From NCBI RefSeq assembly GCF_003019035.1, contig NZ_CP027447.1: a stretch of DNA of 64,000 nt; one strand, given 5' to 3'. Below, one piece after another: positions 21,040 to 39,277 of the stretch; the stretch's first letter is position 1; each line of letters begins with the position of its first letter. The stretch is from Escherichia coli. Lineage in GTDB: Bacteria; Pseudomonadota; Gammaproteobacteria; Enterobacterales; Enterobacteriaceae. The notes beneath the pieces were generated by a model. The model had not been told where the DNA came from. It made no database searches and was given only the letters and a program-made list of their open reading frames with translations. The position numbers were made by a program, and so were the translations under genes.

Positions 21040-21253
21040 TTTGCTGTCCCGCGTTATGTTGTCGGAGACAGTTTGTGAGAAATGCAGGCCCGGCGATTTT
21101 AATCTGCTTTAGAAAACATCAGGGGAGAAGGACAGGGAAAGCAATGCGGTGAACCGGAAGCGGTTATAAAACAGAGGCTGTAAAGCCTTTATAAAGGTAA
21201 TACAGCCCCTCATTCGCTGGCAATGATAAATCACCCGCCTGAAGAGAGAAAAC

Positions 21254-21712: not shown

Positions 21713-21714
21713 TG

Positions 21715-22536: not shown

Positions 22537-24013
22537 GCAGACGCCCCCGGATATTTGCCACAAAGAGAATGCGGGCCAGCCGCTCCTGCAGATCGTCCGT
22601 GTTCATCTGAGGGTAGAGCTCCGCCAGTTCGCCCAGCAGCTCAGACGGGTTAACCCCGTTTTCGACCCGCTTAAACAGAGGTGCCAGGACGGGTTCCAGC
22701 GTGCCATTTAACACACCTCCGTTCATCAGAATGTCCAGTGCGTCGTCAAGCTGCTGTTGAGCCTGAATATCGGCATCAATCGCCTCGGCAAATGACAGCG
22801 GCAGCATGTTCTTCTCGCGTTCTGACGGTGGTGTCTCGTCAATATCGCCGTCCTGCAGCTGGTACTCACGCTTGAAGTATTGCGGGGTCAGACGCAGACC
22901 CGCCCGGGTGAGTTTTTCGTCGCGGGTGGCACGGGTGTCATCAATGGCCTCCTGTTCCCACATGGCCCAGACCGGACACGGCACATCGCCGAAGTTCAGG
23001 GTGACCACCGTTCTTATGACCTGATTCACTGCCGCCTGAATGATGTCCGCATCCGCATCGCGGATATCAGCCGTCACCTCCAGCCCGGCCTGTGCAGAGG
23101 CCTTGTTACTGTTCGCTTCCGTGGTCTGATTCTGACCGAGTAATGCAATGGAGATCTCACTGCGTGACAGTGTGATCAGCTCGCGGAATACCTCGCTGCT
23201 GTCCGCCTTGCCATCCGCTGCTTTGAGTTCGATACTGCTGTCATCGGGGATGGCGGCCACCGCGTCCTCCACCATCTGCTCCATGGAGTCCAGCAGTTTT
23301 TCAATCTCTGCATCATTTGCACCCCTCGGGTGCTTACCGATCACCCACGGGGAGCCAAACTTTTCGGCAAAGCGGAGCCAGAATTTCATCCCGCCTTTCT
23401 TGAAGGCGACCGGCCAGAAGCACATGGACAGGTCCGGGAAACCGTAAGGATTGTCATAGGATGCATCCTGTGCCGGCACCACGAATTTTGACGGTGACAG
23501 CAGCTCACCCTCCACACCCGCATCACGCGCCCGGAAGCGCAGGCAGTTGTCCGTATCAAACTGGAACCACTCAGGTGGTTTGCCGACAATATCCGTCACC
23601 GCCCACGCCCTGACCGAACGGCCCCACATGATTTCACAGGGCTGATACCCGTAGAGCACGGCATCGCTCATCTCACCGATGATGCGGGACAGATCCAGAT
23701 CGTCGAGCATGTCGCGGATGAAACGGAAGACCCGGGCAGAAGCGTGACCGCGCTCCAGTCCACGCTCCAGCGATTTGAGCGCTGCTTTACGTCTGCGGAT
23801 ACAGCCCCCGACCAGCGGGTCGGTGCGCAGTTCGCGGTAGATACGGATATCCCGTCCCTGAGCCTTGAGAATGGGATCAGGATTGGGCAGATACATGCCC
23901 AGTCCGTAAAAGTCGATCGCGCGGCTGCGGGAGGCAATCTGCGCGGTCAGTGATTTCTGAGGCTCAGAAAAAGCAACAAATTCATCGGGTGAAACCCAGA
24001 TACCCCTCGCCAT
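22517..24013 (-). CDS. Portal protein (Mu H/gp29-like)
   Basis: 498 aa; its ATG overlaps the terminase stop (ATGA). Confidence 0.8.
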   Translation of the reverse strand: MARGIWVSPDEFVAFSEPQKSLTAQIASRSRAIDFYGLGMYLPNPDPILKAQGRDIRIYRELRTDPLVGGCIRRRKAALKSLERGLERGHASARVFRFIRDMLDDLDLSRIIGEMSDAVLYGYQPCEIMWGRSVRAWAVTDIVGKPPEWFQFDTDNCLRFRARDAGVEGELLSPSKFVVPAQDASYDNPYGFPDLSMCFWPVAFKKGGMKFWLRFAEKFGSPWVIGKHPRGANDAEIEKLLDSMEQMVEDAVAAIPDDSSIELKAADGKADSSEVFRELITLSRSEISIALLGQNQTTEANSNKASAQAGLEVTADIRDADADIIQAAVNQVIRTVVTLNFGDVPCPVWAMWEQEAIDDTRATRDEKLTRAGLRLTPQYFKREYQLQDGDIDETPPSEREKNMLPLSFAEAIDADIQAQQQLDDALDILMNGGVLNGTLEPVLAPLFKRVENGVNPSELLGELAELYPQMNTDDLQERLARILFVANIRGRLHERDNG

Positions 24014-25329
24014 CAGAATCCCTCCAGTATATGACCAGCCTCACGGCGGTGACGCGAACGGGCCATCACCGGCCCTGACGGTCCGTCAGTGGCGTTTATT
24101 GCCAGAAAACAGGCCCATGTGCGGTCGGCGTGACCTGCTGCATCACTTTCGGCCACAAAGCGGGGAGTTCCGGTAGGCCCGGTAACCTTGCGAAGTTTAT
24201 GCAGATCACTGCGCAGGACCACATCTCCCGCCGGAATACGCAGGCGGCGGTCCTCAAACATCTCCCTGCCACGGGTCGCGAGGGTGAGCTTGTTCGGGCT
24301 GTTAAATATCACCCCCTCCACACGGCTTCTGCCATGGCGACCCTGTGCATCCTCCACCGGCTTTTCTCCCATCCCGGTCTGATCCATACAGCAGCGCAGC
24401 ACGCGGTAACGGAAAAATACGTCATCCAGCAAAGCATCCTGCTCAGCAAAGGTGGCCCGTTTACGGGTGATGATTTCCCGGGTCCAGTAGACATCCCCCA
24501 CCTGTTCAAGCACCCAGATGACAAACAGGTCATTACGAACAGCAATATCCACCCCCACAAAGCAGGGGCCACCCGTATAGTGCACCGGCAGCCCGGCAGC
24601 ATCGTGCTCCACGCCGTCAATCAGTTCAAACGTCAGCCAGGCCGATGCCTCATCCAGCCACTTCAGTTCAAACTCCTGTGCCCAGGCGTCATCATCGTTG
24701 AGCGCCTGTCGCATCTGTGCAATATCCCGCGGCAGACCATCACGCACGGCACGGTAAATATCCACGATGTGACGTGACCAGACATTTTCAAGGGCGTTGC
24801 TGGTCATCAGTTCATAAAACTTGTTTCCCTTGCCGTTCGGTGTCGATGTCACACGCAGTCTGTAGCCGTTGGAAATGACCGGAAACAGAGCGGTCCAGAT
24901 TTTGCGACTGTCGGCATGGAAGGCGAACTCATCCAGAAAGACGTTAGCCGCAAACCCACGAGCCGTGTCGGGATTCGCCGGCAGGGCCGTGATACGGGAG
25001 CCGCCGGGTAACTCCACCTCAAGCATGGTGTAGCGTTCGCCGCTTTCAGCACGGTAATAACTTTCCACCTCACGGGCCGCCATCCGGTAGGCGCTGCAGT
25101 GTTTTTTCACCCCCTCCACCATGGCTTCTTTTGCCTGACGCTCCCCGCGCGAGAGGATCACCCAGCGTGTACGTCCCCCTGAGGCCTCCGTTTCAAAACA
25201 GTCATCAACCAGTTCCAGCGTGGTGGTGAACGTCTTGCCCGTCTGACGGGCAAACATACCAATCTTGAAACGGGCACGATCCAGAAACCACGACTGCTGA
25301 TAGGGATACAGCTGAATGGCCGCTGTCAT
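24013..25329 (-). CDS. Terminase large subunit (Mu gp28-like)
   Basis: 438 aa with an N-terminal ATPase motif (ARQTGKTF) and C-terminal nuclease-like acidic residues. Confidence 0.8.
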   Translation of the reverse strand: MTAAIQLYPYQQSWFLDRARFKIGMFARQTGKTFTTTLELVDDCFETEASGGRTRWVILSRGERQAKEAMVEGVKKHCSAYRMAAREVESYYRAESGERYTMLEVELPGGSRITALPANPDTARGFAANVFLDEFAFHADSRKIWTALFPVISNGYRLRVTSTPNGKGNKFYELMTSNALENVWSRHIVDIYRAVRDGLPRDIAQMRQALNDDDAWAQEFELKWLDEASAWLTFELIDGVEHDAAGLPVHYTGGPCFVGVDIAVRNDLFVIWVLEQVGDVYWTREIITRKRATFAEQDALLDDVFFRYRVLRCCMDQTGMGEKPVEDAQGRHGRSRVEGVIFNSPNKLTLATRGREMFEDRRLRIPAGDVVLRSDLHKLRKVTGPTGTPRFVAESDAAGHADRTWACFLAINATDGPSGPVMARSRHRREAGHILEGF

Positions 25330-25880
25330 GAGATCACCCCGTAAATCTGTTCCCGCACCATCTTCAGGGTTTCCAGACTCAGGCGGGTGTCGCCGGACTT
25401 CGCCTGTTTTTCCAGAGCATTCATCCGCGCCTCAATTTTTGCCAGCACCTCGGCCCGGAATCGCTTGTGGGTCACCGAAGCCCGTACCAGTGTGGCTATA
25501 CTTTCCGAAGCAGTGGCCAGCAGTTTTGCGCGTTTTGCAGGATCATCACTTTCCCCGATTTCCTGCAGACGCATCAGAACATCCAGCATCTCGGTCTGAA
25601 TCAGTGCCATCATCCCGGCAGAACGATCGTCCGCCTCGTCACCGGCTTCCTGCGCCATCAGACGCGCGGCCTCGGTGGCGGCGCGGATGCGGGCCAGTTG
25701 TCGCTCCATTTTGTAGCCAAACCGCTGCAGGGAAGAGCGGGTGATGACGTATCCCTTCTCCTTCAGCAGGGCTTCCAGCCGGGCATATCCACTGAAGTTA
25801 TTCTCCGTCAGTGCCCGCTCCAGCCAGCGGCGGACCTCCGTCGGCAGAGAATCAATGCTGCTGCGACGTCCCATAATCAC
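25326..25880 (-). CDS. Putative terminase small subunit (Mu gp27-like)
   Basis: 184 aa, helical, immediately upstream of the large subunit. Confidence 0.55.
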   Translation of the reverse strand: MIMGRRSSIDSLPTEVRRWLERALTENNFSGYARLEALLKEKGYVITRSSLQRFGYKMERQLARIRAATEAARLMAQEAGDEADDRSAGMMALIQTEMLDVLMRLQEIGESDDPAKRAKLLATASESIATLVRASVTHKRFRAEVLAKIEARMNALEKQAKSGDTRLSLETLKMVREQIYGVIS

Positions 25881-26188
25881 TCACTCCAGTATTTTTCCGG
25901 GCGGGCAATACCCGGGCCGCATTCCACGGTGTATTCCACAATATCCACACCAAGGCGACTCAGATCGGCAAACCAGTCACCGGACGGTCTCTTCTCCAGC
26001 TCCACCATTTTGCGATCTGCCAGATAATCAAGCTCCCGGCGCAGCTCCAGTTGCGTGGTGTCCGGGTAGATGGCACGGGACACGTCCAGCAGCAACGTTT
26101 CGCTGGCGGTGTAAGGGCGGGTTTTGTTCAGGGCAACCAGCAGACTCCAGCGCAGGGATTCGCGGCGTACCCGGGTAATATCGACCAT
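25877..26188 (-). CDS. Hypothetical protein (Mu gp26-like position)
   Basis: 103-aa ORF in operon overlap with neighbours. Confidence 0.4.
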   Translation of the reverse strand: MVDITRVRRESLRWSLLVALNKTRPYTASETLLLDVSRAIYPDTTQLELRRELDYLADRKMVELEKRPSGDWFADLSRLGVDIVEYTVECGPGIARPEKYWSE

Positions 26189-26514
26189 TATTGACCTCCG
26201 GTATTGCGGTACTGCTGTACCACTTCCAGTTTGTTGTAAAGTGCGTCCAGTTTGGCCTCGATGACTGTCTGGCCACGGATATAATCCTCGCGACGGACAT
26301 AATTCAGCGGTAAATCCGCTTTAAATCGCATAAATTCCTTTTCCAGCTCGCCCCAGTTGGAGGCGGACTGTTGCAGGGCCTGTTCAAGGGAGGCGAATCG
26401 TGCCGCCTGGCGTTCTTCTGTTTTACTGAACAACCATTTGGCGAGCCCTCCAACAAACCCCATGAAGGTGAGCAGAAAACTCACCACCGTCCAGAATTCA
26501 ACCTGCAGTGTCAT
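26188..26514 (-). CDS. Hypothetical membrane protein (Mu gp25-like position)
   Basis: 108 aa with an N-terminal TM helix and coiled-coil tail. Confidence 0.4.
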   Translation of the reverse strand: MTLQVEFWTVVSFLLTFMGFVGGLAKWLFSKTEERQAARFASLEQALQQSASNWGELEKEFMRFKADLPLNYVRREDYIRGQTVIEAKLDALYNKLEVVQQYRNTGGQ

Positions 26515-27164
26515 TTCTGTAATCCTTCCCGTTCATCCAGCAGCGCGTTTATCTGGTTTCGCCAGCGACGACATTGCCCTGCGTTGTCGATGATGTTGGC
26601 GAGGACGTCACGCTGGGAGACACCCGAATTGCGTAACCGGGCGTCAGCGGTTTCAGGTTGCCCGGTCGCTGCGCCAGTGCCGGTGCCAGCGGCGGCAGTT
26701 GCGTCTGAATGACCGGTGTCGACGGATGCGTTGTCATACCCGAGTGCGGCGTTGTACTGGCGCACGAAACCGCGAGTAAACACGCACTCAATGGGATGGC
26801 TCTTACCTTTTTCATCAATCCAGCGCTGTGTGACATCGTTAATTTGCCCCTGTAGTTGTTTGTTCAGGCTCTCCAGTTGAGCAATCTGCTCAAGATAACC
26901 GGCTTCAGCCCGCTGCCCGGCGGCCACCTGCTCCTGATACCGTTTTGCCCATGCTCGCAACGCAGCGTTCTCAAGCATTGCCTGCTCCGTTTTGTATGTG
27001 TCGAATGCTGACTGCAACTCACTGATCGCCTTATCGCCGTCGCGCGTGGCGTTTTCATGCCCGCTTTTGTAGCCCAGGTAATAAAGTCCAATCAGAAAAG
27101 CATTTATGAGCACAGCCAGCAGCAGACTGCGCCACGGCAGATTTTTTAGCAGGTTAGTCCACAC
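26511..27164 (-). CDS. Inner-membrane spanin (Rz-like)
   Basis: 217 aa, N-terminal TM helix then coiled coil; directly downstream of the endolysin. Confidence 0.6.
   Translation of the reverse strand: MWTNLLKNLPWRSLLLAVLINAFLIGLYYLGYKSGHENATRDGDKAISELQSAFDTYKTEQAMLENAALRAWAKRYQEQVAAGQRAEAGYLEQIAQLESLNKQLQGQINDVTQRWIDEKGKSHPIECVFTRGFVRQYNAALGYDNASVDTGHSDATAAAGTGTGAATGQPETADARLRNSGVSQRDVLANIIDNAGQCRRWRNQINALLDEREGLQK
26549..26815 (-). CDS. Outer-membrane lipoprotein spanin (Rz1-like), fully embedded in the Rz-like gene
   Basis: Alternative-frame ORF MKKVRAIPLSAC... with lipobox LSAC and a proline-rich mature part. Confidence 0.5.
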   Translation of the reverse strand: MKKVRAIPLSACLLAVSCASTTPHSGMTTHPSTPVIQTQLPPLAPALAQRPGNLKPLTPGYAIRVSPSVTSSPTSSTTQGNVVAGETR

Positions 27165-27882
27165 AGCTGCCGCCCCCCCATGTCAGATAACGGGGGGCCA
27201 GTTCGTGCAGGATGCGCTGCGGATAATGGCGGTTCTCCCGCCAGCTGGCAGCATTGCGTCCGGCATTCACCGTGGCGACATGCCCGAACCAGCGGGTACT
27301 GTCCAGGCCTTTCTGTGATGCTAGCTGCCTGTCCCGTTGTACCCAGCCCAGACCACCGTTATAGCCCGACAGTGTCATGGCCATACGTTCGCAGTCACTG
27401 GCGGCGCTGACGCGCTGCCACAGCCAGCGGTCATAGCTGACCAGCGCCCGGATGGCCCATGCCGGATTAAACGGCTCACGGCTGTTAAGCCCCGGCATCA
27501 GCTGACTTATCCAGTCAGCAGTGGCGGGCATGAACTGCGCCAGTCCCTGAGCGCCAGCCGGCGAGACCGCATCAGGTCGCCAGCCGCTTTCCTGATGCAG
27601 TTGCGCAGCGAAATCGGCCACCGGCGCAGACAGTCCCCATTCAAGCCGGGCATTACGGATCACATCATCGCGATACTGCAGCGCAGCCTGCGGAGGCTGC
27701 GCTGCGCGGGCCTGACTGAAGAAGCCGCCACACCAGAGCAGCCAGACAATCACCAGGTTGCCAGCAAGCTGCCACCAGAAGCTGTATTTATCGTTACGTG
27801 GTTCTCCGTGTCTGATGGCGGTTACGCCCAGACCAAAGGCGAACAGAATAATGAGGGTGATTTGAGGCCAGTTCATGGTCAC
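27154..27882 (-). CDS. Endolysin, SLT-type lytic transglycosylase with N-terminal signal-anchor
   Basis: 242 aa; hydrophobic N-terminus followed by ...LHQESGWRPDAVSPAGAQGLAQFMPATADW... Confidence 0.8.
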   Translation of the reverse strand: MTMNWPQITLIILFAFGLGVTAIRHGEPRNDKYSFWWQLAGNLVIVWLLWCGGFFSQARAAQPPQAALQYRDDVIRNARLEWGLSAPVADFAAQLHQESGWRPDAVSPAGAQGLAQFMPATADWISQLMPGLNSREPFNPAWAIRALVSYDRWLWQRVSAASDCERMAMTLSGYNGGLGWVQRDRQLASQKGLDSTRWFGHVATVNAGRNAASWRENRHYPQRILHELAPRYLTWGGGSCVD

Positions 27883-28229
27883 AGTCCTGTTGCCACAGCC
27901 AGACAGACCGCTGCAACAATCAGTGCACGGCGGATTAACGCAGCAGAAAATACAAGGTGAAGGCCGGTCTGCACAGGGAAACGCCCTTCAGCCATCAGCC
28001 TGTCTTCATGTTTCAGGTACTGACCGGGACGGGCTTTGGGGAAGAGTGAACGGTCAAGCCAGTAACCCAGCACTGCTGCCAGCGTGATGAGTGCCAGCTT
28101 GTAGATCACAACAGGCAGCTGCTGTGGCGAGACCAGAGCGATGGTGCCCAGCAACAGCACTGAGGTCAGCAGCCAGCCGCTGAGGCGAGGTTTTTTAACA
28201 GGGGGAATGAATTTTTTCAGGTTTTTCAT
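27879..28229 (-). CDS. Putative holin (3 TM segments)
   Basis: ATG at 28227-28229 preceded by AAGGAG (MKNLKKFIPP...); three hydrophobic helices; first gene of the lysis cassette. The track ORF begins at an upstream GTG. Confidence 0.5.
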   Translation of the reverse strand: MKNLKKFIPPVKKPRLSGWLLTSVLLLGTIALVSPQQLPVVIYKLALITLAAVLGYWLDRSLFPKARPGQYLKHEDRLMAEGRFPVQTGLHLVFSAALIRRALIVAAVCLAVATGL

Positions 28230-28359
28230 GTGTGTCTCCTTGTCTGGTGGAGACAGCATCACAAATACAGGGCGCGAAGGATTTTAAAGCGCGTTAAGAG
28301 AGCCGGGGATACGGGATGTGCAGGATAAACGATGAATTATTCACAGAGGAGAATACGAT

Positions 28360-28785
28360 ATGACGCAGACACTGAATCCGGTCATCACTGTCACCGTGTC
28401 CGGTCCTGTGGGCAGCGGTAAAAGTTACGTACTGGCGCGGATAGAAGAGATGGTGAAACAGGAACCCGGAAACAGCGTCATTGTCGATGCTGCTGACGTG
28501 GAGAATGAGCGCCGTATGAGTGGGGATGATCTGAGCACATGGCAGAAACCACAGGCAGGTACAATTATCCGACTGGAAGAATACACTGAGCGGGTAACTC
28601 TATCATATAGTGAGGAGCGCATTTGCCTGACGAATGCACTGCTGGAAGTTATATGTCCCGAAGGCAAGAGCCCCTGGATACTACCCGATGCTGTACATGC
28701 CGCAATTGCTGCATTGTTCGTATTATACGATCAGGAGCTGGTTTTAATGGAGTTATGTAAGGTTATTAAAGCTACAGAAAAGTAA
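28360..28785 (+). CDS. Hypothetical small P-loop protein (Walker A GPVGSGKS), orphan accessory gene
   Basis: 141-aa ORF with GAGGAG RBS; Walker A at residues 15-22; divergent from the late operon; no family recognised. Confidence 0.6.
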   Translation: MTQTLNPVITVTVSGPVGSGKSYVLARIEEMVKQEPGNSVIVDAADVENERRMSGDDLSTWQKPQAGTIIRLEEYTERVTLSYSEERICLTNALLEVICPEGKSPWILPDAVHAAIAALFVLYDQELVLMELCKVIKATEK

Positions 28786-28860
28786 AAATATTATCGGTAT
28801 CCTGTGGATGATAAAAACACGCTACCCACAGGATTACTTGTATAAAACCGTGGATAACAA

Positions 28861-29382
28861 CTAGATAAAACCATCATAGAAGTCATCCCTCTTACGAGAC
28901 CTGATACGAACTGGATTTGGCTCTCCTTTCAACCATACAGCACTGTTTTGACCACAAACCGGACACATGCAAAAACTGTCTTTTCGTATATGCAGGATAC
29001 TTTTCAGGTTTTTGGAATCAAAACAAGTCTGGCAAATATAATGTTCAGTTTCATCGTTTCCCGTATAACGATAAGCATAGAAGCCTTTTTCTTCACTCAG
29101 TAACGTCAGTTTATAATTACCGCGAAAGTTAAGAAGGTCTTCCAGAGAGCGAATTTTCTCTTCCAGATTGGTAATGGTTTTTTGCTGTTCTCCTAGCTTG
29201 CTCGTTACCTCAAAGAACTGCCCCTGTGCTTCAATAATTTTACTCTGTAATTCACTGGTCAAAGCGGCCTGTTTTATTTGATCACGCTCTTTTATTATTT
29301 TCTGAGCAGTACTGCTGATATAGCCAAGAGCTGTTAATAAAGCGTTTGTATCCATAGCACCCCGATATCCTCTAAACCACAT
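28861..29382 (-). CDS. Hypothetical coiled-coil protein with C-terminal zinc-ribbon (CxxC...CxCxxC), orphan accessory gene
   Basis: 173 aa (or 164 aa from the second ATG at 29355); heptad-like N-terminal half; C-terminal YICQTC...CMCPVCG; visibly AT-rich DNA. Confidence 0.55.
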   Translation of the reverse strand: MWFRGYRGAMDTNALLTALGYISSTAQKIIKERDQIKQAALTSELQSKIIEAQGQFFEVTSKLGEQQKTITNLEEKIRSLEDLLNFRGNYKLTLLSEEKGFYAYRYTGNDETEHYICQTCFDSKNLKSILHIRKDSFCMCPVCGQNSAVWLKGEPNPVRIRSRKRDDFYDGFI

Positions 29383-29422
29383 TAACAGAAATCACTTCAT
29401 CCCTGCCGCATCATGAAAGAAC

Positions 29423-29454
29423 GACCAGCCCGGCACCCGAAAGCCGGGCTGGTC
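29423..29454. other. Perfect 12-bp GC-rich stem-loop in the divergent intergenic region
   Basis: GACCAGCCCGGC-acccgaaa-GCCGGGCTGGTC between the 173-aa gene start and the methyltransferase gene. Confidence 0.5.
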
Positions 29455-29557
29455 ATCGTCCCACAGGAATGCACTGTGAGCCGACCGAGGTTCAGTCAGT
29501 CTCGCGAGACCAGACTAGCCTGCCATATTTTTAATAATTGTAAAAGGCTTACAGATT

Positions 29558-30322
29558 ATGAAAATGCAGTCATTACCCATCGTTCCATGGATTGGTGGCA
29601 AACGCCGCCTTGCAAAACACATTCTGCCGCTGTTTCCGGCGCATGAATGTTATGTGGAGCCGTTTTGTGGGGCAGCAGCGCTCTATTTTCTTAAGACACC
29701 CGGCAAGATCGAAGTCATTAATGATATCAACGGTGAACTGGTGAATCTGTACCGGGTGGTAAAGCATCACCTGGAAGAATTTGTCCACCAGTTCAAATGG
29801 GCGCTGGTCAGCCGTCAGATCTACAAGTGGCTGCAGATCACCCCGGAAGAAACACTGACGGATATCCAGCGTGCAGCACGGTTCTACTACCTCCAGAAGC
29901 AGGCGTTTGGCGGCAAGGTAGCAGAACACAGCTTCGGTACCTCCACCACATCCCCGCCACGCTTCAACCTGCTGCGTATTGAAGAAGAACTGTCAGCGGC
30001 ACACCTGCGACTTTCCAGAACAGTCATAGAACACATGGACTGGCAACAGTGCATTGAGCGCTATGATCGTCCGCACACGCTGTTCTACTGTGATCCGCCG
30101 TATCTGGGTACGGAAGGCTATGGTGTGGATTTTCCTGAAGGGAACTACTCGCGGCTGGCAGAGCTGGCCCGGTGCATCAGAGGAAAAATGATAATTTCGG
30201 TGAACGACATCCCGCAGATGCGCGAGGTGTTCACTGGACTGAACATACAGACAGTGAATATCAACTACAGTCTGGCGGGGAAACCCACGCCGCGCCGTGA
30301 ACTGATAATCTGCAACTTCTGA
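29558..30322 (+). CDS. DNA adenine methyltransferase, Dam-like
   Basis: 254 aa with the N-terminal AdoMet-binding region (FCGAAALYF) and the catalytic DPPY motif (YCDPPYLG). Confidence 0.85.
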   Translation: MKMQSLPIVPWIGGKRRLAKHILPLFPAHECYVEPFCGAAALYFLKTPGKIEVINDINGELVNLYRVVKHHLEEFVHQFKWALVSRQIYKWLQITPEETLTDIQRAARFYYLQKQAFGGKVAEHSFGTSTTSPPRFNLLRIEEELSAAHLRLSRTVIEHMDWQQCIERYDRPHTLFYCDPPYLGTEGYGVDFPEGNYSRLAELARCIRGKMIISVNDIPQMREVFTGLNIQTVNINYSLAGKPTPRRELIICNF

Positions 30323-30329
30323 AACAGAA

Positions 30330-30352
30330 CCGGAAAGCACAATGCTTTCCGG
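30330..30352. terminator. Hairpin between the convergent methyltransferase and repressor genes
   Basis: CCGGAAAGCA-caa-TGCTTTCCGG, 10-bp perfect stem, 8 bp after the methyltransferase stop. Confidence 0.45.
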
Positions 30353-30438
30353 TAAATCAGCCCATTCCTGCCATGCTACTGACGGCGCTTTCTGAAAGCG
30401 TCCAGATCAACCACCTGTCCTTTGTGTCCGGGTCAGAA

Positions 30439-30816
30439 TCAGCCTGTAAATTTACTTGGTTTGGGTTGAGTATAGAATCGCCCAACCTCAAGAAATGAGC
30501 GTCGTTGTTCCGGAGTCATTTCATCAAATGCGTCCATTAATTTTTGTTTTTCTGGTGACATTTTTGGGACAACATTGGTCATTACATCCCCTCTCTGTCC
30601 TGTAACAACGTAAAGCACGTCAAGCCCTAAAGTAGCCCAAATTGCCAAAGCATCTGCTCCGGGAGCGGATTCATCCTTTTCCCACCGCAATTGGCTTTTA
30701 TAGGATGCCCCCACCAATTCAGCAAACTCAGACTGACTAAATCCTAGGCGGTTTCGTTCTTCTTTTAATCGTGAGCCAAGTGACATTTTTGTCCAATACC
30801 TATTTACATGTCCCAT
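30439..30816 (-). CDS. Phage repressor, XRE-family HTH
   Basis: 125 aa with HTH LGFSQSEFAELVGASYKSQLRWEKDE; divergent from the early operon. Confidence 0.7.
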   Translation of the reverse strand: MGHVNRYWTKMSLGSRLKEERNRLGFSQSEFAELVGASYKSQLRWEKDESAPGADALAIWATLGLDVLYVVTGQRGDVMTNVVPKMSPEKQKLMDAFDEMTPEQRRSFLEVGRFYTQPKPSKFTG

Positions 30817-30878
30817 TTTTGGGATAATAATCTAACATATATAGAGCAAACATCATTGCGTTAATAAAGGAGGCAACA

Positions 30879-31067
30879 ATGACTGCAGAGCAGGTCAAAG
30901 CCCATTTCCGCCGCAACGGAATCACCTTTACCCAGTGGGCAAAACAGAACAACTACACCCGAGCAGAGGTTTACCGCGTACTGAATGGACAGGTAAAAGC
31001 GAACTATGGCAAAGCCCATGAAATCGCCGTCAAGCTGGGATTAAAAACCATCACTGACGCCGCTTAA
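30879..31067 (+). CDS. Small DNA-binding early regulator (Ner/Cro-like by position)
   Basis: 62 aa, strong RBS AAGGAGG; first gene of the early operon, divergent from the repressor. Confidence 0.5.
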   Translation: MTAEQVKAHFRRNGITFTQWAKQNNYTRAEVYRVLNGQVKANYGKAHEIAVKLGLKTITDAA

Positions 31068-31113
31068 AAAGATACAGCATGCGAAAAAGATTATCACATA
31101 TTGAAAAAGAGGT

Positions 31114-31428
31114 ATGCAGATGAGTAAGACGAATGTTTCAAGCTCCGGCAGTCGTATCCTCCGGGTACTCAAAGCGCTGCGCGGTCATGCCCTGAACGGT
31201 ATTTCCAACGGTGAACTGGCAGCAGCACTGCACGAGTCACCGGCAAACATCAACCGGGCACTCAACACCCTCATTGAAGAAGGGCTGGCCCTGAAACTGG
31301 AGAATGGACGTTTTGCTCCTGGCATCCAGTTACTGCAGATCGCCATGGCTCACAGTAACGAGATGGCACGAGCGCAGGATCGTATTAACGAAATCAACCA
31401 ACGTGTCATTTCAGGTAGTCGTTTGTAA
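31114..31428 (+). CDS. Winged-helix (IclR-type HTH-like) DNA-binding protein
   Basis: 104 aa; RILRVLKALRGHALNGISNGELAAALHESPANINRALNTLIEEGLA pattern. Confidence 0.45.
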   Translation: MQMSKTNVSSSGSRILRVLKALRGHALNGISNGELAAALHESPANINRALNTLIEEGLALKLENGRFAPGIQLLQIAMAHSNEMARAQDRINEINQRVISGSRL

Positions 31429-31438
31429 GGAGTAATCA

Positions 31439-32350
31439 ATGGGACGCACTAAATCACCAATGACCACAGATCTGAATGCTGAGGTGCCGCTTTCTGATGA
31501 TCTCAACGTCAGCCTGAATACCATGACACAGCATCGTATGGAGATCATGCAGCAGTTCGGCGACGGCCTGCCCTATGAACGTAATCGCATCGTTCACGAA
31601 GCTCGGTTTTATATGGACCAGAGTGCGGAGGCTATGCTGGAGGCAGGTAAACGTTTGGTTATCCTGAAGGAAAATGAACCTCATGGAGAATACGTACAAA
31701 TCGTCAAAGAACAGTTGAACCTTGAGCCACGCATAGCCCAAAAAATGGCCCAAGCTGCTCTGAAGTTTTTATCTCCAGAGCTGACATCAAAAGCGAAAAC
31801 GTTTTCGCATTTGGGAAGATCAAAACTGTACGAATTGATGTTAGAGGATGATGAAGACCTTGCCGAACTGGCCGACGGTGGCACAGTTGCCGGCCTGACG
31901 CTTGACGACGTTGATCGCATGTCAGTACGTGAATTGCGTCAGTCTCTTCGCGAAGCCCGCGAAACCAACGCAGCACAACAGCGCGTACTCGCCGACAAAA
32001 ATGAAAAAATAGACTCACTCTCCACCAGACTGGAGAAGAAATCCCGTATTCAGCCGCCTGAGCCTGATGAGGAGGTTAAGAAGCTGCGGGCGGAAGTGAC
32101 AGCATTAGCGGTTGAGGCGGAATCTGCCATCGCCGTTCGATTGTCCAGCGCTTTTGAGACGCTGTGTGCATATTGTGCTGAAAACATGATTGATACCCCC
32201 AGAGACTTCATGGCAGGCCTGGTCTGTCAACTGGAAAGCACAGCGCGTAGCCTGCGCTCCACATTTGACCTGCCGGACGAGCCAACAGGCAATGCAGCGC
32301 CTTCATGGCTGACTGAGCCGACGCCACAGATTAACGGGCTGGAGGCATAA
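31439..32350 (+). CDS. Hypothetical early protein
   Basis: 303 aa, helical/acidic, RBS TAAGGAG; immediately upstream of the transposase. Confidence 0.45.
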   Translation: MGRTKSPMTTDLNAEVPLSDDLNVSLNTMTQHRMEIMQQFGDGLPYERNRIVHEARFYMDQSAEAMLEAGKRLVILKENEPHGEYVQIVKEQLNLEPRIAQKMAQAALKFLSPELTSKAKTFSHLGRSKLYELMLEDDEDLAELADGGTVAGLTLDDVDRMSVRELRQSLREARETNAAQQRVLADKNEKIDSLSTRLEKKSRIQPPEPDEEVKKLRAEVTALAVEAESAIAVRLSSAFETLCAYCAENMIDTPRDFMAGLVCQLESTARSLRSTFDLPDEPTGNAAPSWLTEPTPQINGLEA

Positions 32351-32353
32351 CCA

Positions 32354-34135
32354 ATGAATGCTGCCCTGACTGAACGACTGGTTTATGTCGCCCGCGCGGC
32401 ACGTGACGCGGGGCATGGTAAACGCGGTGCAATATACGACGCTGCCTGTGCTGAACTTGGCATGTCCCGCGCCACTCTGCTGCGCAGGCTGAAGGAGGTC
32501 TCTGTGACTGATAAACGCAAAAAACGCGCCGATGCCGGGCGCAGCGCTCTGACCCGCGACGAAGCCGCGCTGATATCTGCCACACTGCGTGAGGCCACCC
32601 GCAAGAACGGTAAGCGTCTCTATTCCATCGCAGATGCAGTGGAAACCCTGCGGGCTAACGGCTTTATCTCCGCAGGCAGAACAGATGAAACCACCGGTGA
32701 GTTTTTCCCGTTGTCCGAAGATGCCATCAGTCGTGCCCTGCGTAACTATGGCCTGCACCCGGAACAACTGGATGCCCCTGCACCGCATACCGAAGTGGCC
32801 AGTCTGCATCCCAATCATGTCTGGCAGATTGACGCCTCACTCTGCACGCTTTACTACCTGAGCAATGGACATAAAGGGCTGCAGGTGATGGACAGCGCGA
32901 AGTTCTACAAGAACAAGCCCGCTAACCTTGCCCGTATCGCCAGTGACCGCGTGTGGAGTTACGAGATTACCGACCATGCCAGCGGCTGGATTTACGTTGA
33001 GTATGTGACGGGCGCGGAATCCGGTGAGAACCTGTGTTCTGTGCTTATCAACGCCATGCAGGAGCGCGGTGGCGCAGACGTGCTGCACGGCGTGCCGAAA
33101 ATACTCTATCTCGACCCTGGCTCGGCAAACACCGCGGGTATGACGAAAAACATGTGCCGCTCACTGGGCATCGACCTGATAGCGCACAGGCCGCATAACG
33201 CCCGCGCCACCGGACAGGTGGAAAAGGCGCGTGACATTATCGAACGCAAGCTGGAGCCGGGTCTGAAGTTCCGGCCGGTTCACAGTCTGGAAGAACTCAA
33301 CGCGCTGGCCGCGAAATGGCGCAGCCACTTTAACGCCACGGCTGTTCACAGCCGCCACGGTAAAACCCGCACGGATATCTGGCTGAAGATTACTGCTGAG
33401 CAGCTGAAAAAAGCGCCTTCCGTTGAAGTATGCCGTGAACTGGCTGTGGCGACACCAGAACTCCGCAAAGTCACGCCAAAACTTCGTGTCTCGTTCCGGG
33501 GCACTGAATTTGACGTATCAACGGTACCGGGCGTACTGGTTGGTGAAAAACTGATGATTACCCGTAACCCATGGCGCAGCGATGTGGCACAGGTGGTTCT
33601 GACCGGTGAGGACGGCCACGAGACGTTCTTCCTGGTCGAAGAGGTCAGAAAGAACGAGTTTGGCTTTGCTGAAGGCGCGGCGGTATTTGGCGAAAGTTAC
33701 AAAGCCCTGCCGGAAACCCCGGCACAGATGGCGGCAAAAGAAACCGAAGCGCTGGTTACCGGTACAGACAACGCCGCAGATGCAGCCGCCGCACGCAAGG
33801 CGAAGGCGCTGCCGTTCGGCGGGCGGCTTGACCCGTATAAACATATCGACGACACCACACTTCCGGCCTATATGCCGAAGCGTGGTCAGGCCTCTGACGT
33901 ACGCGGGCCGCGCACTGAACAACGTCCCATGACTCATGTGGAGGCCGCGAAAGCCCTGCGCGATAAGTTCAGCGCCGACGGCCTTACCTGGACGCCGGAA
34001 CATTACCGCCAGTTAACGGCACAGTACCCGGACGGCGTACCGGAAGCTGCACTGGATGAAGTCATGGCCACGCTGACCACGCCGGCCCGCAGCAGCGTTA
34101 TCAGCAGCGTTATCAGCATTGTTAACGGCAACTGA
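32354..34135 (+). CDS. DDE transposase (integrase catalytic core; functional analogue of Mu A)
   Basis: 593 aa; candidate catalytic region HVWQIDAS...YLDPGSANTAG; followed by the transposition ATPase gene. Confidence 0.8.
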   Translation: MNAALTERLVYVARAARDAGHGKRGAIYDAACAELGMSRATLLRRLKEVSVTDKRKKRADAGRSALTRDEAALISATLREATRKNGKRLYSIADAVETLRANGFISAGRTDETTGEFFPLSEDAISRALRNYGLHPEQLDAPAPHTEVASLHPNHVWQIDASLCTLYYLSNGHKGLQVMDSAKFYKNKPANLARIASDRVWSYEITDHASGWIYVEYVTGAESGENLCSVLINAMQERGGADVLHGVPKILYLDPGSANTAGMTKNMCRSLGIDLIAHRPHNARATGQVEKARDIIERKLEPGLKFRPVHSLEELNALAAKWRSHFNATAVHSRHGKTRTDIWLKITAEQLKKAPSVEVCRELAVATPELRKVTPKLRVSFRGTEFDVSTVPGVLVGEKLMITRNPWRSDVAQVVLTGEDGHETFFLVEEVRKNEFGFAEGAAVFGESYKALPETPAQMAAKETEALVTGTDNAADAAAARKAKALPFGGRLDPYKHIDDTTLPAYMPKRGQASDVRGPRTEQRPMTHVEAAKALRDKFSADGLTWTPEHYRQLTAQYPDGVPEAALDEVMATLTTPARSSVISSVISIVNGN

Positions 34136-34145
34136 GGAGGAAAAC

Positions 34146-35312
34146 ATGCTGGTACTGAAGCAGCAACTGAAAGAGGCCCGTATCCCACAGGCGGTGGTGG
34201 CGAGAGCTGTCGATGTTTCTGAGGCCACGCTGGCCCAGATTGTGAATCATAACGCGTGGCCCCGCACCCGCCCCGGAGAAGTGCGCCGGCGTCTTGCGTC
34301 CTGGCTGGAAAGTCAGGGGATTGATACAACGAAGAGTTTTGATGCTGTACAGGGCGCGGCCACGCCCCGTACAGCGGGTACCACAGATAAAACGAGCCTC
34401 AGTGAGGAAGAGAATATGTTACTCAAAAAACAGGTGTTATTTCCAGCAACCAAAAAAGCGTTTGGTCTTTTCCGTGACCCGTTCGCCGACGAAGCCATGC
34501 AGGGTTCTGATGATGTGTTCACCACCCCGGACATTCGCTACGTGCGTGAGGCGCTGTACCAGACAGCCCGTCATGGTGGGTTTATGGCCGTCATCGGTGA
34601 GTCCGGTGCGGGTAAATCCACGCTGCGCCGCGACCTGACTGAACGTATCAACCGCGAGAATGCGCCGGTAATTGTTATCGAGCCATACATCATCGCTATG
34701 GAAGACAACGATGTGAAAGGGAAAACCCTGAAGGCAGCAGCTATTGCCGAAGCCATTATCAGTACCATCGCACCACTGGAAAGCATCAGACGCAGTCAGG
34801 ACGCCCGCTTTCGCCAGTTGCATCGCGTCCTGAAAGACAGCAGCCAGGCGGGGTTCAGCCACGTTCTGGTGATTGAGGAGGCTCACAGTCTGCCCATTCC
34901 GACACTGAAACACCTCAAACGCTTTTTTGAGCTGGAGTCCGGTTTCAAAAAACTGCTGTCCATCGTGCTGATTGGTCAGCCGGAACTGGCGACAAAACTG
35001 TCTGAACGCAATATGGAAGTCCGTGAAGTCGTTCAGCGCTGTGAGGTGGTCGAACTTCTGCCTCTGGACAATAACCTTGAAGAGTTTCTGACGTTCAAAC
35101 TGCAACGGGCCGGTAAACAACTGACGGACATTATGGACGCCAGTGCAGTGGATGCCATACGTGCCCGCCTGAGCAATCCGGGAAGTCATCGTAAAAATAT
35201 GGTCAGCCTGCTGTATCCGCTGGCCGTCAGTAACCTGGTGATAGCCGCCATGAATCTGGCCGCTGAAATCGGGGTTCCACAGGTCAACGCTGACGTTGTC
35301 AAAGGGGTTTAA
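34146..35312 (+). CDS. AAA+ transposition ATPase (Mu B / TniB-like)
   Basis: Walker A GESGAGKST and Walker B VLVIEEAH; ATG at 34146 with GAGGAGG RBS; the track ORF opens at an upstream TTG. Confidence 0.75.
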   Translation: MLVLKQQLKEARIPQAVVARAVDVSEATLAQIVNHNAWPRTRPGEVRRRLASWLESQGIDTTKSFDAVQGAATPRTAGTTDKTSLSEEENMLLKKQVLFPATKKAFGLFRDPFADEAMQGSDDVFTTPDIRYVREALYQTARHGGFMAVIGESGAGKSTLRRDLTERINRENAPVIVIEPYIIAMEDNDVKGKTLKAAAIAEAIISTIAPLESIRRSQDARFRQLHRVLKDSSQAGFSHVLVIEEAHSLPIPTLKHLKRFFELESGFKKLLSIVLIGQPELATKLSERNMEVREVVQRCEVVELLPLDNNLEEFLTFKLQRAGKQLTDIMDASAVDAIRARLSNPGSHRKNMVSLLYPLAVSNLVIAAMNLAAEIGVPQVNADVVKGV

Positions 35313-35314
35313 TA

Positions 35315-35584
35315 ATGAAATCCACCACAGGTATCAACCAGCAAATCAGCAAAGTGCAGTCAGCCATTATGGCGCTTAAGGCGACGAACACGGATGTACA
35401 AAGCATCACCATCAGGGGTAACAAACCTGTCATCCGCGTTTCCCGGAGTGCGCATTGCATGCGCATGCTTGAGCAGGGAAAGGCCTGTTATCTGTATACC
35501 GGACATGACCACAGGGGATATTTCCGTCAGGGCGTTTTCGAACTGCACGGCTGTCGCGTCGTGTGGCCGGAATCTTTGTGGTAA
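35315..35584 (+). CDS. Hypothetical early protein
   Basis: 89-aa ORF directly after the ATPase gene. Confidence 0.4.
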   Translation: MKSTTGINQQISKVQSAIMALKATNTDVQSITIRGNKPVIRVSRSAHCMRMLEQGKACYLYTGHDHRGYFRQGVFELHGCRVVWPESLW

Positions 35585-35611
35585 TCAGCACAACTGGAGA
35601 AATCATAAAAT

Positions 35612-36142
35612 ATGGCAAAAAGTACAAAAGGGGCAAAACGTATCAAGTCCGCAGCGGCACTCTGGGTACCAGGGACACGCGAAGAGGTCATTGAGGGCAT
35701 CAGACTGCTCGGTGACGCACAACGTGAACTGGTCAGGGCTGAAACAGAAATGAATGACGCCATTGGCGATATCACCGCACGTTATGCCCCGCTCACCGAG
35801 AGCCTGAAAAAACGCATGGCCGAACTGCAGTCCGGTATTCAGACATGGTGTGAGGCACACCGTGATGAACTGACCGGCAACGGGAAGGTGAAGTTCGCTA
35901 ACCTCACCACCGGCGAGGTGCAGTGGCGAAACCGTCCGCCATCAGTCAGTATCCGTGGAGCGGATAATGTTATTGAACTACTGAGACGTCTGGGGCTTGA
36001 GCGCTTTATTCGTGTAAAAGAGGAAATAAATAAAGATGCCATTCTGAATGAAAAAGAGGCCGTGAAAAATATTCCCGGTATTACCATAAAAAGTGATATT
36101 GAGGATTTTTCAATAATTCCTTTTGAGCAGGATGTGCAGTAA
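35612..36142 (+). CDS. Gam-like host-nuclease inhibitor / DNA-end binding protein
   Basis: 176 aa, size and sequence character of Mu Gam; RBS GGAGA. Confidence 0.6.
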   Translation: MAKSTKGAKRIKSAAALWVPGTREEVIEGIRLLGDAQRELVRAETEMNDAIGDITARYAPLTESLKKRMAELQSGIQTWCEAHRDELTGNGKVKFANLTTGEVQWRNRPPSVSIRGADNVIELLRRLGLERFIRVKEEINKDAILNEKEAVKNIPGITIKSDIEDFSIIPFEQDVQ

Positions 36143-36239
36143 ACACACCACGTTAATTATTTAATAAAAATATTTTCTTTTTTATTCCGGCGTCAGCGCC
36201 GTGGGCTTCTGCACGCCGGAAACAGAGGAGAATTAAATT

Positions 36240-36434
36240 ATGATATTTAAATGTATTCAGTGCGAGAGGGATATAACAGCCCTGCGTTTTCACAGCGCCA
36301 TCGCCGTGATGTCCGGTAAATACCACATCCCTGCGGTACGCGTCACCCTGGTCTGCCCGTACTGCAGCCAGCATTTTTCGGCGGACGTGCCCGTCATGGA
36401 ATTCTCCCGCCCTGACAGGGAGGACGCGCAATGA
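36240..36434 (+). CDS. Small zinc-ribbon protein
   Basis: 64 aa with CIQC...CPYC; RBS GAGGAG. Confidence 0.45.
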   Translation: MIFKCIQCERDITALRFHSAIAVMSGKYHIPAVRVTLVCPYCSQHFSADVPVMEFSRPDREDAQ

Positions 36435-36703
36435 TTACCCCACAGGAAGCACGACAGCGCACCCGAACCCTTGTTGAACACTATGTCAACGAGTGTGAAT
36501 GCCGCGACCTCACCGATGTGAAGCACGTCCTGACGGCGCTAATCAGCATGGCCGCTCAGGCCATTGTGGCGACCAACGGAAAGGCGGCTGCCCTGCAGGT
36601 ACTGGTGAACACACTCACCCACACGGCAGAGCATGAGGTGCCGTACCGGATGGAAACCACTGCAGAAGGCGGCCTGCACATCACCGTCAGCCGGAAGCAC
36701 TGA
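36431..36703 (+). CDS. Hypothetical early protein
   Basis: 90 aa; ATGA overlap with the upstream gene. Confidence 0.4.
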   Translation: MITPQEARQRTRTLVEHYVNECECRDLTDVKHVLTALISMAAQAIVATNGKAAALQVLVNTLTHTAEHEVPYRMETTAEGGLHITVSRKH

Positions 36704-36712
36704 GGGCGCGGC

Positions 36713-37009
36713 ATGACACGAAACACCGAACTCACCCGCACCGCCCTCTACCGTCTGGCCCTGCACCGTTTCGGGCCGGACGCACAGGCCCTGAAACTGA
36801 CAGAAGAGGCCGCTGAACTGGCGGCCAGTGCTGCCCGCAATCTGAACGGACAGGGCAACGAAAGTGACCTCGCGGCAGAGCTGGCAGACGTGGAAATCAT
36901 GACAGAGCAATTGCGCCTTCAGGGGATGGACCGGCTGATTGACTTCCACAAACAGAAAAAACTGGAACGTCTGGCTGCACGACTGGGCGTGATTTACACG
37001 AACGAGTAA
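36713..37009 (+). CDS. MazG-like nucleotide pyrophosphohydrolase domain protein
   Basis: 98 aa with EExxE and ExxD motifs (LTEEAAELAA...ELADVEIM) typical of all-alpha MazG/HisE-type NTP pyrophosphatases. Confidence 0.5.
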   Translation: MTRNTELTRTALYRLALHRFGPDAQALKLTEEAAELAASAARNLNGQGNESDLAAELADVEIMTEQLRLQGMDRLIDFHKQKKLERLAARLGVIYTNE

Positions 37010-37023
37010 CCGGGAGGCATTCA

Positions 37024-37239
37024 ATGGCTGACATACTCAGGGAAATCACCGCATGGATACTGATTCTTACTGGCCTGGCGACATGCCTCAGTGCGGGGGC
37101 AGCCCTGGCTGCCCTGCTGATGCACATAACAACACAGTGGTTATGGGAAAAGCTTAAAGCAGCATACAGCCTGAAAGAGCTGTCCGACGCTGTCCGGGCA
37201 TGGAAACGGCAGAAAAATACCGGAGATACAGAACAATGA
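37024..37239 (+). CDS. Small membrane protein
   Basis: 71 aa with one hydrophobic helix; RBS GGGAGG. Confidence 0.4.
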   Translation: MADILREITAWILILTGLATCLSAGAALAALLMHITTQWLWEKLKAAYSLKELSDAVRAWKRQKNTGDTEQ

Positions 37240-37919
37240 CAGACCAGAATAAACACATTGAGAAACTGAAAAAGTTGCTGGCGCTGGCCGCATCCGGCAA
37301 CCCGCACGAGGCCGCTCTGGCACTGCGCCGAGCCCGTAAACTGATGGATGTTCACGGCATCACACATTCCGACATTGCTATGAGTGATATTGATGAAACC
37401 ATCAGTCATTACTGGCCGACAGGCAGTCTCCGTCCACCGCGCTACATGCTGGGCCTGATGAACATCATCCGCGAGGCATTTGGTGTTAACTCCATCATTC
37501 ACCCCGGCACGCATCCGTCTGTGGGGTTCTACGGTAACCGGGAACGAGCGGCACTGGCTGCGTACACCTGGGAAGTGCTGGTCCGCCAGCTGAAAAAGGC
37601 GCGTCAGCAGTATATCAGCGCACAGAACAAAAGAATAAAAAACGCCACCCGTACCAGCCGTGGAGACCAGTTTGCTGAAGGCTGGGTACTGGCCGTTATC
37701 AGTGAAATACAGTCCTTTGCCCTGACCGATGATGAGCGTGAACTGATGCAACAGTGGCTGGAACATAAATACCCGCAAACGCAAACCACCAGGGCGCGTA
37801 AACCGGGAAGAAGCCGCAATGGCGACGCCTCGCGCTATGCGGGGTTTCGTGAAGGGCAGAACGTCAGACTGCACCGCCCGGTCAGTGGGCAGGAACAACA
37901 GAAACTGGAGGCCAGATGA
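37236..37919 (+). CDS. Early protein with DUF2786-like N-terminal domain
   Basis: MTDQNKHIEKLKKLLALAASGNPHEAALALRRARKLM...; ATGA overlap with the upstream gene. Confidence 0.5.
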   Translation: MTDQNKHIEKLKKLLALAASGNPHEAALALRRARKLMDVHGITHSDIAMSDIDETISHYWPTGSLRPPRYMLGLMNIIREAFGVNSIIHPGTHPSVGFYGNRERAALAAYTWEVLVRQLKKARQQYISAQNKRIKNATRTSRGDQFAEGWVLAVISEIQSFALTDDERELMQQWLEHKYPQTQTTRARKPGRSRNGDASRYAGFREGQNVRLHRPVSGQEQQKLEAR

Positions 37920-38146
37920 TTACGCTATCAGGTAACAGCCGGAAATTAAAAGCCTGCCGAATATCTGCCAGATACCTTTTTGCCCGCGCCTTTTTTAAGA
38001 ACGTCAGGCCGGGGATCACAATTGGTGTTATTGCCGGACGCGAACAGGTTGAAAAATACATGTCAGGTGCATGGTGGGATAACGACCCTGTCATTGCTGC
38101 CCGTAATATTCATATCAGTTGGGGGGATATTCAGAATGACGGCTGA
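37916..38146 (+). CDS. Hypothetical protein
   Basis: 76-aa ORF, ATGA overlap with the upstream gene. Confidence 0.35.
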   Translation: MITLSGNSRKLKACRISARYLFARAFFKNVRPGITIGVIAGREQVEKYMSGAWWDNDPVIAARNIHISWGDIQNDG

Positions 38147-38351
38147 ATCTGTTGTATGTGCCCTGTTCTGGTATTGTTTTGTCGGTTGGTGTACTGCTGA
38201 ACTGCACCGCCGTTCAGGGTTTTATTCACGTTACAGTGGTGCCGGCTACTGGATTAGCTGGTCGGTGATGTTCCTGTGCTGGCCTGTGGCGCTTCCTTTA
38301 TATGTCGGTTATATCGGTGGCGCAGGTAAAAGGAGCAACGATGATGACTAA
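38136..38351 (+). CDS. Small membrane protein
   Basis: 71 aa from the ATG at 38136 after a G-rich RBS; two hydrophobic helices. Confidence 0.4.
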   Translation: MTAESVVCALFWYCFVGWCTAELHRRSGFYSRYSGAGYWISWSVMFLCWPVALPLYVGYIGGAGKRSNDDD

Positions 38352-39240: not shown

Positions 39241-39277
39241 TGCTCTCTCTTTAGTATTCAGGATGCAGGGAGAAAAT

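Follow-up and report, generated by a model that had tools for sequence, protein, structure and literature searches.

An orphan adenine methylase of a BcepMu-like Escherichia coli prophage and a conserved structured RNA element, a candidate antisense regulator, at its start

The product of the anti-restriction gene mom of phage Mu is an acetamido-transferase, unrelated to the DNA methyltransferases (methylases) considered here. In Mu-like phages an adenine methylase lying behind the gene com replaces mom, an example being ORF47/48 of phage B3, and mom is also replaced by Hia5, Hin1523 and Nma1821, non-specific Dam-related DPPY methylases of Mu-like prophages which are silent in lysogens (Drozdz et al. 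2012, PMC3299994). The 1,000 closest relatives of Hia5 did not include the methylase of the B3 ORF48 type (PMC3299994). A further enzyme, M.EcoMIV (EC958_1101), is encoded by prophage Phi2 of the Escherichia coli strain EC958, a member of sequence type 131 (ST131). Its transcription, measured by quantitative reverse-transcription PCR on mid-log cells in LB, was significantly below that of dam, single-molecule real-time (SMRT) sequencing of EC958 gave no motif assignable to it, and REBASE held no known recognition site for homologues of more than 65% identity (Forde et al. 2015, PMC4659465). Our search of the literature found no later paper assigning a site to M.EcoMIV and no assigned motif for the homologue in Campylobacter CJIE1. 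Here we describe a stretch of 64,000 nucleotides of E. coli contig NZ_CP027447.1 (the window) which contains, within a BcepMu-like prophage, an allele of M.EcoMIV identical at 251 of 254 residues, and in particular a structured RNA element, conserved among relatives, where the methylase gene starts. The features needed for the argument are the following.

29558..30322, plus strand: methylase gene, an orphan D12-class N6-adenine DNA methyltransferase of 254 amino acids with an ATG start.
29409..29575, minus strand favoured: structured RNA element of ~165 nt, abutting and overlapping the methylase start, with a three-way junction (P1/P2/P3) and then a U/C-rich tail.
29423..29454, unstranded: helix H1/P3, GACCAGCCCGGC (29423-34) with GCCGGGCTGGTC (29443-54), showing strong covariation across relatives.
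29458..29482, unstranded: helix H2/P2, CACAG (29462-66) with CTGTG (29474-78), reaching 9-11 bp on the minus strand via three near-invariant G.U pairs.
29488..29521, unstranded: helix H3, with an apical 12-bp palindrome GTCTCGCGAGAC (29499-29510).
29544..29554, plus strand: Shine-Dalgarno sequence AAGG (29544-47) and segment e, GGCTTACAG (29546-54).

The explanation that best fits the locus as a whole, to which we give a probability of about 0.55, is that the gene encodes a functional orphan D12-class N6-methyladenine (m6A) methylase with an anti-restriction role in lytic growth, that it is silent in the lysogen, probably by means of the RNA element at its start codon, and that its site should not be assumed to be GATC. 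During the lytic phase the enzyme would methylate phage DNA. In the lysogen it would be essentially off, and the silencing would probably involve a minus-strand antisense RNA containing a three-way junction and complementary to the methylase's 5' leader. A leader on the plus strand, with 29474-82 paired to 29546-54 across the ribosome-binding site (RBS), would be the alternative, and the two may also act together as a sense and antisense pair. The RNA element and not the methylase is the interesting part of this locus, and it plausibly enforces the silence of the methylase. The methylase itself changes little; the evidence speaks for silence in the lysogen and not for an epigenetic conversion of the host.

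The first-pass annotation of this DNA had placed the methylase as its own unit. This is incomplete, as the start codon abuts the RNA element, which that annotation had not seen. Conservation is stronger in the ~200 bp upstream of the ATG than within the coding sequence; for Klebsiella KP12, the identity was 87.5% over the upstream region versus 82.4% over the stretch covering element plus gene. Compared with shuffled sequence the element folds much better on either strand (z values of -5.0 and -5.6), and the hairpins H1 (29423-54), H2 (29462-78) and H3 (29488-521) covary. The apex of H3 is altered in relatives yet stays palindromic, reading TTCTCGAGAA or TCATCGATGA. Using a covariance model built from the plus-strand fold, the element was found immediately 5' of the methylase even in loci whose protein is about 60% identical, and element and methylase gene together are present in 528-555 of 5,426 complete E. 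coli genomes. A search of Rfam 15 gave no family at its gathering score for the element and no match at E<=1 in the region 28200-31200; the matches below threshold lay on the minus strand only (ctRNA_pGA1, 32.7 bits versus 45; Pxr, 23.8 versus 80). It is a new element, conserved and structured, belonging to no Rfam family and not previously described. The apical palindrome GTCTCGCGAGAC was also considered as a late-promoter (Mor/C) site shared with other genes, and this was rejected as there is a single copy in the window and none upstream of the holin gene or elsewhere.

The element can be folded on either strand. In the plus-strand model, CUGUGAGCC (29474-82) pairs with GGCUUACAG (29546-54) to give 9 bp with one G.U, and the Shine-Dalgarno sequence is thereby covered in its 3' half, as is the spacer; the same segment b, CTGTGAGCC (29474-82), which contributes to H2, is thus complementary to 29546-54 as well. 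This model had 95.4% of cells paired, versus at most 52% when slid, and 11 covarying pairs (0/500 shuffles). The minus-strand model does no worse; examined on 18 diverse sequences, it had 92.4% of cells paired and 19 covarying pairs (0/500 shuffles). It forms a three-way junction in which 5 of the 6 pairs of the outer helix P1 covary and H1 closes the junction, followed by the U/C-rich tail. When consensus energies were calculated on diverse sets of the same loci, the minus strand reached -40.5 kcal/mol versus -17.4 kcal/mol for the plus strand. For a held-out test of the strand, two models (R1 and R2), one per strand, were built from the same 15 sequences and scored on 19 distant loci not seen in building them. 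The minus-strand model scored higher in all 19, with a mean margin of ~10 bits; examples of the scores, minus versus plus, are 80.9 versus 67.1, 63.8 versus 44.3 and 54.4 versus 34.2 bits. A double change in loci L026 and L027 restores the extended H2/P2 helix of the minus strand and breaks the plus-strand helix over the RBS. Given the covariation and the held-out test, a cis-encoded antisense RNA on the minus strand, complementary to the leader of the methylase, is the favoured prediction of these models.

Several observations weaken this prediction. No conserved promoter was found on either strand of the element, and a sigma-70-like sequence on the minus strand, TTTTCA-16-TACAAT (29564-29537), is conserved in the E. 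coli clade only. Nor does the U-rich tail that follows the junction form a canonical terminator tract. Furthermore, the plus-strand helix over the RBS is complementary in nearly all relatives, so that the choice of strand is favoured rather than proven.

An explanation using the plus strand only would have the leader hide the RBS by pairing 29474-82 with 29546-54, a competing hairpin, 29462-66 with 29474-78, acting as the switch, so that the methylase would possess an RNA-only counterpart of the translational control of mom by com. The predicted minimum-free-energy fold (z -4.97) contains the 9-bp helix, which is paired to 95-96% when 15-27 relatives are compared. Whatever variation the helix shows preserves pairing, its central G.U is possible on the plus strand only, and in the lineage of locus L038, where the shared segment has changed from U to C, both partner segments carry a matching change. 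The plus strand is certainly transcribed in distant loci, as two plus-strand genes flank the element there. In the com-type loci described below, the RBS of the methylase is likewise paired, with a CCUCU stretch within the 3' end of com. Mu mom has a translation-inhibition stem, which this pairing resembles. However, the 19 held-out loci and the consensus energies both fall on the side of the minus-strand structure, the G-to-A change in L026 and L027 which breaks the RBS helix is compensated in minus-strand P2, and changes affecting both sides of the RBS helix are almost absent. We therefore regard control by the plus strand alone as possible but rather unlikely.

Some other readings of the region upstream of the methylase were tried and given up. 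Counts of G.U pairs were at one stage taken as proof of a plus-strand RNA and this was withdrawn, each strand having G.U-rich helices of its own. A search for a sigma-70 promoter of the methylase, upstream on the plus strand, found none, and the A/T-rich hexamers which precede the element at distant loci, considered as a promoter, proved to be the stop codons of the upstream gene. H1 does not serve as a plus-strand terminator as no U tract follows it. Nor is the region coding: in relatives the 77-codon open reading frame (ORF) at 29413..29646 has lost its ATG, and indel lengths are not multiples of three.

Cis-antisense RNAs which control translation include RNA-OUT of IS10, the counter-transcribed RNAs (ctRNAs) of plasmids and the antisense RNAs of some restriction-modification (R-M) systems. 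Like these, the predicted RNA is structured and lies opposite a 5' leader and start, and it has the sub-threshold resemblance to ctRNA_pGA1; the three-way junction, however, is atypical of ctRNAs and no Rfam family is reached at threshold. A bolder reading is that the element represents a new family of phage regulatory RNA, a cis-antisense three-way junction, possibly with an RBS-hiding leader, which silences an orphan methylase of possibly relaxed specificity in ~10% of E. coli genomes and releases it only in lytic growth. This is put forward tentatively, at somewhat less than even odds. As an uncatalogued candidate regulator, the element could explain the absence of such prophage methylases from the methylomes of lysogens. 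It also offers a handle, by deletion or mutation, for switching the enzyme on and reading its specificity.

The methylase belongs clearly to the D12 class, as had been claimed from its DPPY motif. A profile search matched Pfam PF02086 (MethyltransfD12) with E 3.1e-29 and 102.9 bits versus a cutoff of 22, residues 11-234 aligning with positions 1-248 of the 253 in the profile. The PADLOC model MTase_II (PDLC03253) matched with E 2e-111 and phrog_56 with E 2e-99. Catalytic motif IV reads FYCDPPYLG, with DPPY at residues 179-182. The S-adenosylmethionine-binding motif I, EPFCGAAALYF, contains an FxGxG-like PFCGAAA in which the last G is replaced by A. Alignments showed the order motif I, recognition region, motif IV, as in EcoDam and DpnM. 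Comparison with five relatives gave a dN/dS of 0.05-0.10, and the gene is thus kept by purifying selection. The family of this protein numbers thousands of entries among the Enterobacterales. The methylase is an intact, widespread, stand-alone enzyme, already catalogued and named in REBASE, and is ordinary as such.

A scan of viral contigs for relatives of the methylase returned 80 loci. Many of the methylases of 60-74% identity lie at the extreme ends of viral contigs of 30-43 kb, directly behind, and often overlapping, an ORF of 51-64 codons with two CxxC motifs. These small ORFs match Pfam Zn_ribbon_Com, the Mu-like prophage protein Com, with E about 4e-16 and above the cutoff. In other Mu-like phages the family follows the gene for the translational activator, com, at the genome end where Mu has mom. 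The present analysis adds a link between an enzyme carried by about one tenth of complete E. coli genomes, ST131 and ABU 83972 among them, and the methylases that replace mom. Protection against host restriction had been proposed as the function, and it is plausible and is reinforced by these com-methylase operons. By analogy with them the most likely role of the enzyme would be to methylate phage DNA in lytic growth so that the progeny escape restriction in the next host. This gives the gene a testable role, anti-restriction in lytic growth.

The locus in the window resembles the com-methylase modules, of the B3 ORF47/ORF48 type and Mu com-mom, in belonging to a transposable phage, in its homology to the methylases of 60-74% identity behind com and in having a paired RBS; B3 ORF48 is known to us from its published description only. 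It differs in that the gene is central in the prophage instead of at the late end and in that com is absent: no com gene was found anywhere in the window by tblastn with seven Com sequences and a regular-expression scan. This missing com and the central position speak against the proposed role, the analogy to mom resting on the family relationship alone. A zinc-ribbon neighbour (28861..29382) was considered as com and rejected, being on the opposite strand and varying between relatives. The RNA element mostly accompanies versions of the module without the protein activator Com. Weak minus-strand matches to the element are also found immediately upstream of com in two loci of the com type, thus the element may precede the whole module and not substitute for com. 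In one locus, L043, an operon at 1973-3762 consists of com, a beta-class (SPPY) methylase of 288 amino acids and then a D12 methylase, and a weak match to the element (1827-1994) is found just upstream of com. The Hia5 group is a different subfamily from the methylase here, set apart by its published description.

The description of the methylase as Dam-like holds for its D12 relationship and does not extend to its specificity. The best relatives of solved structure are DpnM (E 9e-17) and EcoDam (E 7e-14), and EcoDam, T4 Dam and DpnM share its fold family and motif order at an identity of 25-33%. The TIGR00571 'dam' subfamily is passed narrowly (116.7 bits versus a cutoff of 114.85), whereas the Dam equivalog model NF008152 is failed (66.7 bits versus 441). 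In pairwise and 14-sequence alignments K9, L122, R124 and P134 of EcoDam align with P10, K120, A122 and S132 of the methylase. These EcoDam residues are said to have been assigned their GATC-contacting roles by Horton et al. in 2006. Only the intercalating aromatic is retained, Y119 of EcoDam being F117 here. The signature common to Dam and DpnM at the recognition hairpin, [YF]NGL.R.N..FNVP.GRYK, is replaced in the phage family by AFGGKV..FGT.TT..PR.NLLR, which is conserved throughout that family down to 61% identity. With the equivalog model failed and the contact residues not matched, the enzyme probably does not belong to Dam proper. As the residues which read GATC are not conserved, a GATC target cannot be assumed, and from these alignments 'Dam-like' should not be taken to mean GATC-specific.

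A true GATC-specific paralogue of Dam would top up methylation of GATC on phage DNA that is rapidly replicating or transposing, against nicking by MutH or restriction of the DpnII/MboI type, and would be invisible in the methylomes of Dam+ cells. The barely passed TIGR00571 cutoff and the GATC specificity of DpnM and EcoDam agree with such an enzyme, and finding no new motif in EC958 is what it predicts. The replaced contact residues and hairpin signature and the failed equivalog model argue the other way, as does REBASE having no known site for homologues of more than 65% identity (Forde et al. 2015, PMC4659465). GATC is also under-represented in the prophage (3002-40268), with 97 observed versus 167 expected, an observed/expected ratio (O/E) of 0.58 compared with 0.77 in the host flanks, though this depletion is weak evidence of specificity at best. 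On balance a GATC-specific paralogue is unlikely. CCGG is slightly enriched in the prophage (O/E 1.15). A GATC at 40241-40244 falls between the pair of terminal repeat motifs on the right-hand side of the prophage (..ATTTATCTCACGGATCCCCCTTCATTTATCTCATGTCTGA), which could be chance. IS10 and Tn5 have methylation-sensitive binding of their transposases.

It had further been suggested that the gene, lying next to the repressor, is expressed in the lysogen and alters the methylation of the host. This is not borne out by M.EcoMIV, which is 99% identical and sits in the same context: with transcription significantly below that of dam and no SMRT motif (PMC4659465), expression in the lysogen is unsupported. 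The EC958 data, from one growth condition, point to a methylase kept essentially off in the lysogen. Set against this silence are the restriction of those data to LB at mid-log, the masking of any GATC activity by the host Dam, and the clear expression in its lysogen of a 65% identical homologue in the Burkholderia phage phi1026b (PMC2920897).

Lysogenic conversion, in which the methylase would be expressed from the prophage alongside the repressor and put a new methylation pattern on the host chromosome, can draw on this homologue, which reaches 21,563 reads per kilobase per million (RPKM) in a B. pseudomallei lysogen (PMC2920897), on a transcript in EC958 that is low and not zero (PMC4659465), and on the position of the gene adjoining the immunity gene and outside the early and late operons. 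Against it stand the EC958 results, and tight control is suggested both by the conserved RNA element abutting the gene and by the relatives linked to com. In a S. Typhimurium genome with a reported BcepMu-type prophage, where the presence of the gene is unconfirmed, five motifs were seen, all belonging to other enzymes. We consider lysogenic conversion to be decidedly improbable.

The remaining features of the prophage are as follows.

3002..40268, unstranded: BcepMu-like transposable prophage of 37.3 kb in the slyB-anmK intergenic region, with late genes leftward from ~28260 and early genes rightward from 30879.
30439..30816, minus strand: repressor-like helix-turn-helix (HTH_3/XRE) gene, homologue of BcepMu gp17, its immunity role suggested by homology and position.
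30330..30354, unstranded: intergenic hairpin ACCGGAAAGCA-caa-TGCTTTCCGGT with 11 perfect pairs between the methylase and repressor genes, scored as terminator-like on the minus strand.
28360..29382, unstranded: variable accessory slot from holin to methylase, in which other relatives have different genes.
28360..28785, plus strand: P-loop gene (phrog_3787), truncated.
28861..29382, minus strand: coiled-coil/zinc-ribbon gene (phrog_1244) of 173 amino acids, part of the variable accessory slot.

Domain and profile searches of the window proteins found no nuclease domain within ~5 kb on either side of the methylase, in agreement with the earlier remark that no cognate endonuclease is apparent. 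The neighbours on the holin side are swapped for unrelated genes in EC958, A20, PhiKM, KP12 and locus L020 while the methylase is constant. The absence of a nearby nuclease domain, together with this variation of the flanking genes, makes the methylase an orphan and not half of an R-M pair. That it could be the modification half of an R-M or other defence system with its P-loop and zinc-ribbon neighbours, as the PADLOC label 'Type II MTase' and faint P-loop and LmuB-like matches of the neighbours might hint, can hardly be entertained when no neighbour has a nuclease domain, when the neighbours are exchanged around it and when the P-loop gene is truncated here (141 versus 247 amino acids).

The prophage is collinear with Escherichia phage PhiKM, which is classified in Bcepmuvirus, at 79-98% nucleotide identity. 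The right flank of the window is 100% identical to strain SCU-301, in which the site is empty where the window has 37.3 kb extra. The gene order and homology to BcepMu and PhiKM, and an insertion that duplicated its target in a site otherwise intact, are those of a Bcepmuvirus-type prophage. A 10-bp direct repeat, TCAAATCAAT, flanks the prophage at 2992-3001 and 40269-40278 and is present as a single copy in the empty site of SCU-301. Target duplications of Mu are of 5 bp. Inverted end motifs are found near the prophage ends, GTGAGATAAAT at 3033 and ATTTATCTCAC at 40229. The early genes from 30879 encode an HTH protein, an IclR-type HTH protein, a DUF3102 protein and an rve transposase; in relatives, genes for ExeA-like, Gam and Mor proteins come after the early genes.

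The methylase occupies a central accessory slot with the lysis cassette on one side and the repressor on the other, and its placement is the same in PhiKM, E. coli A20, Klebsiella KP12 and prophage Phi2 of EC958. BcepMu has no methylase in the corresponding slot and has other small genes there instead. The product of the repressor-like gene shares 36% identity (E 7e-12) with BcepMu gp17, whose annotation is cro/cI repressor, and the gene is divergent from the homologue of BcepMu gp16. Being downstream on the minus strand and so oriented, it is convergent with the methylase, and the 11-bp stem lies between the two genes, just as the first-pass annotation had described. Phi2 was located in EC958 from the published coordinates of its documented 2,067-bp invertible segment (PMC4134206). 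The M.EcoMIV locus has the same type of BcepMu-like prophage, the same slot between holin-side accessory genes and repressor, and the same upstream element; it differs by the three substitutions in the protein, in its holin-side accessory genes and in its chromosomal site.

The slot between holin and methylase acts like a recombination hotspot for accessory genes. The P-loop gene (28360-28785, plus strand) has 141 amino acids here versus 247 in L020 and 242 positions in the profile, and its truncation appears to have been caused by a cassette exchange which brought in the zinc-ribbon gene at 28861..29382 on the minus strand. L020 has two copies of the RNA element (2217-2383 and 2852-3018), 95% and ~70% identical to that of the window, and between them lie a remnant of a methylase start and an inserted minus-strand gene. 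These two copies around a remnant suggest that the element marks a recombination boundary. The GTG start listed for the holin ORF (27879-28262, minus strand) is 11 codons upstream of where the holin profile phrog_1528 begins, with an ATG at about 28229 as the probable true start. A repeat of ~94-100 bp is present in five copies, in both orientations, at the prophage's tail-fibre end (3715-3808, 4187-4280, 5713-5806, 6257-6349 and 6740-6839), an arrangement resembling an invertible or shufflon-like region of tail-fibre cassettes.

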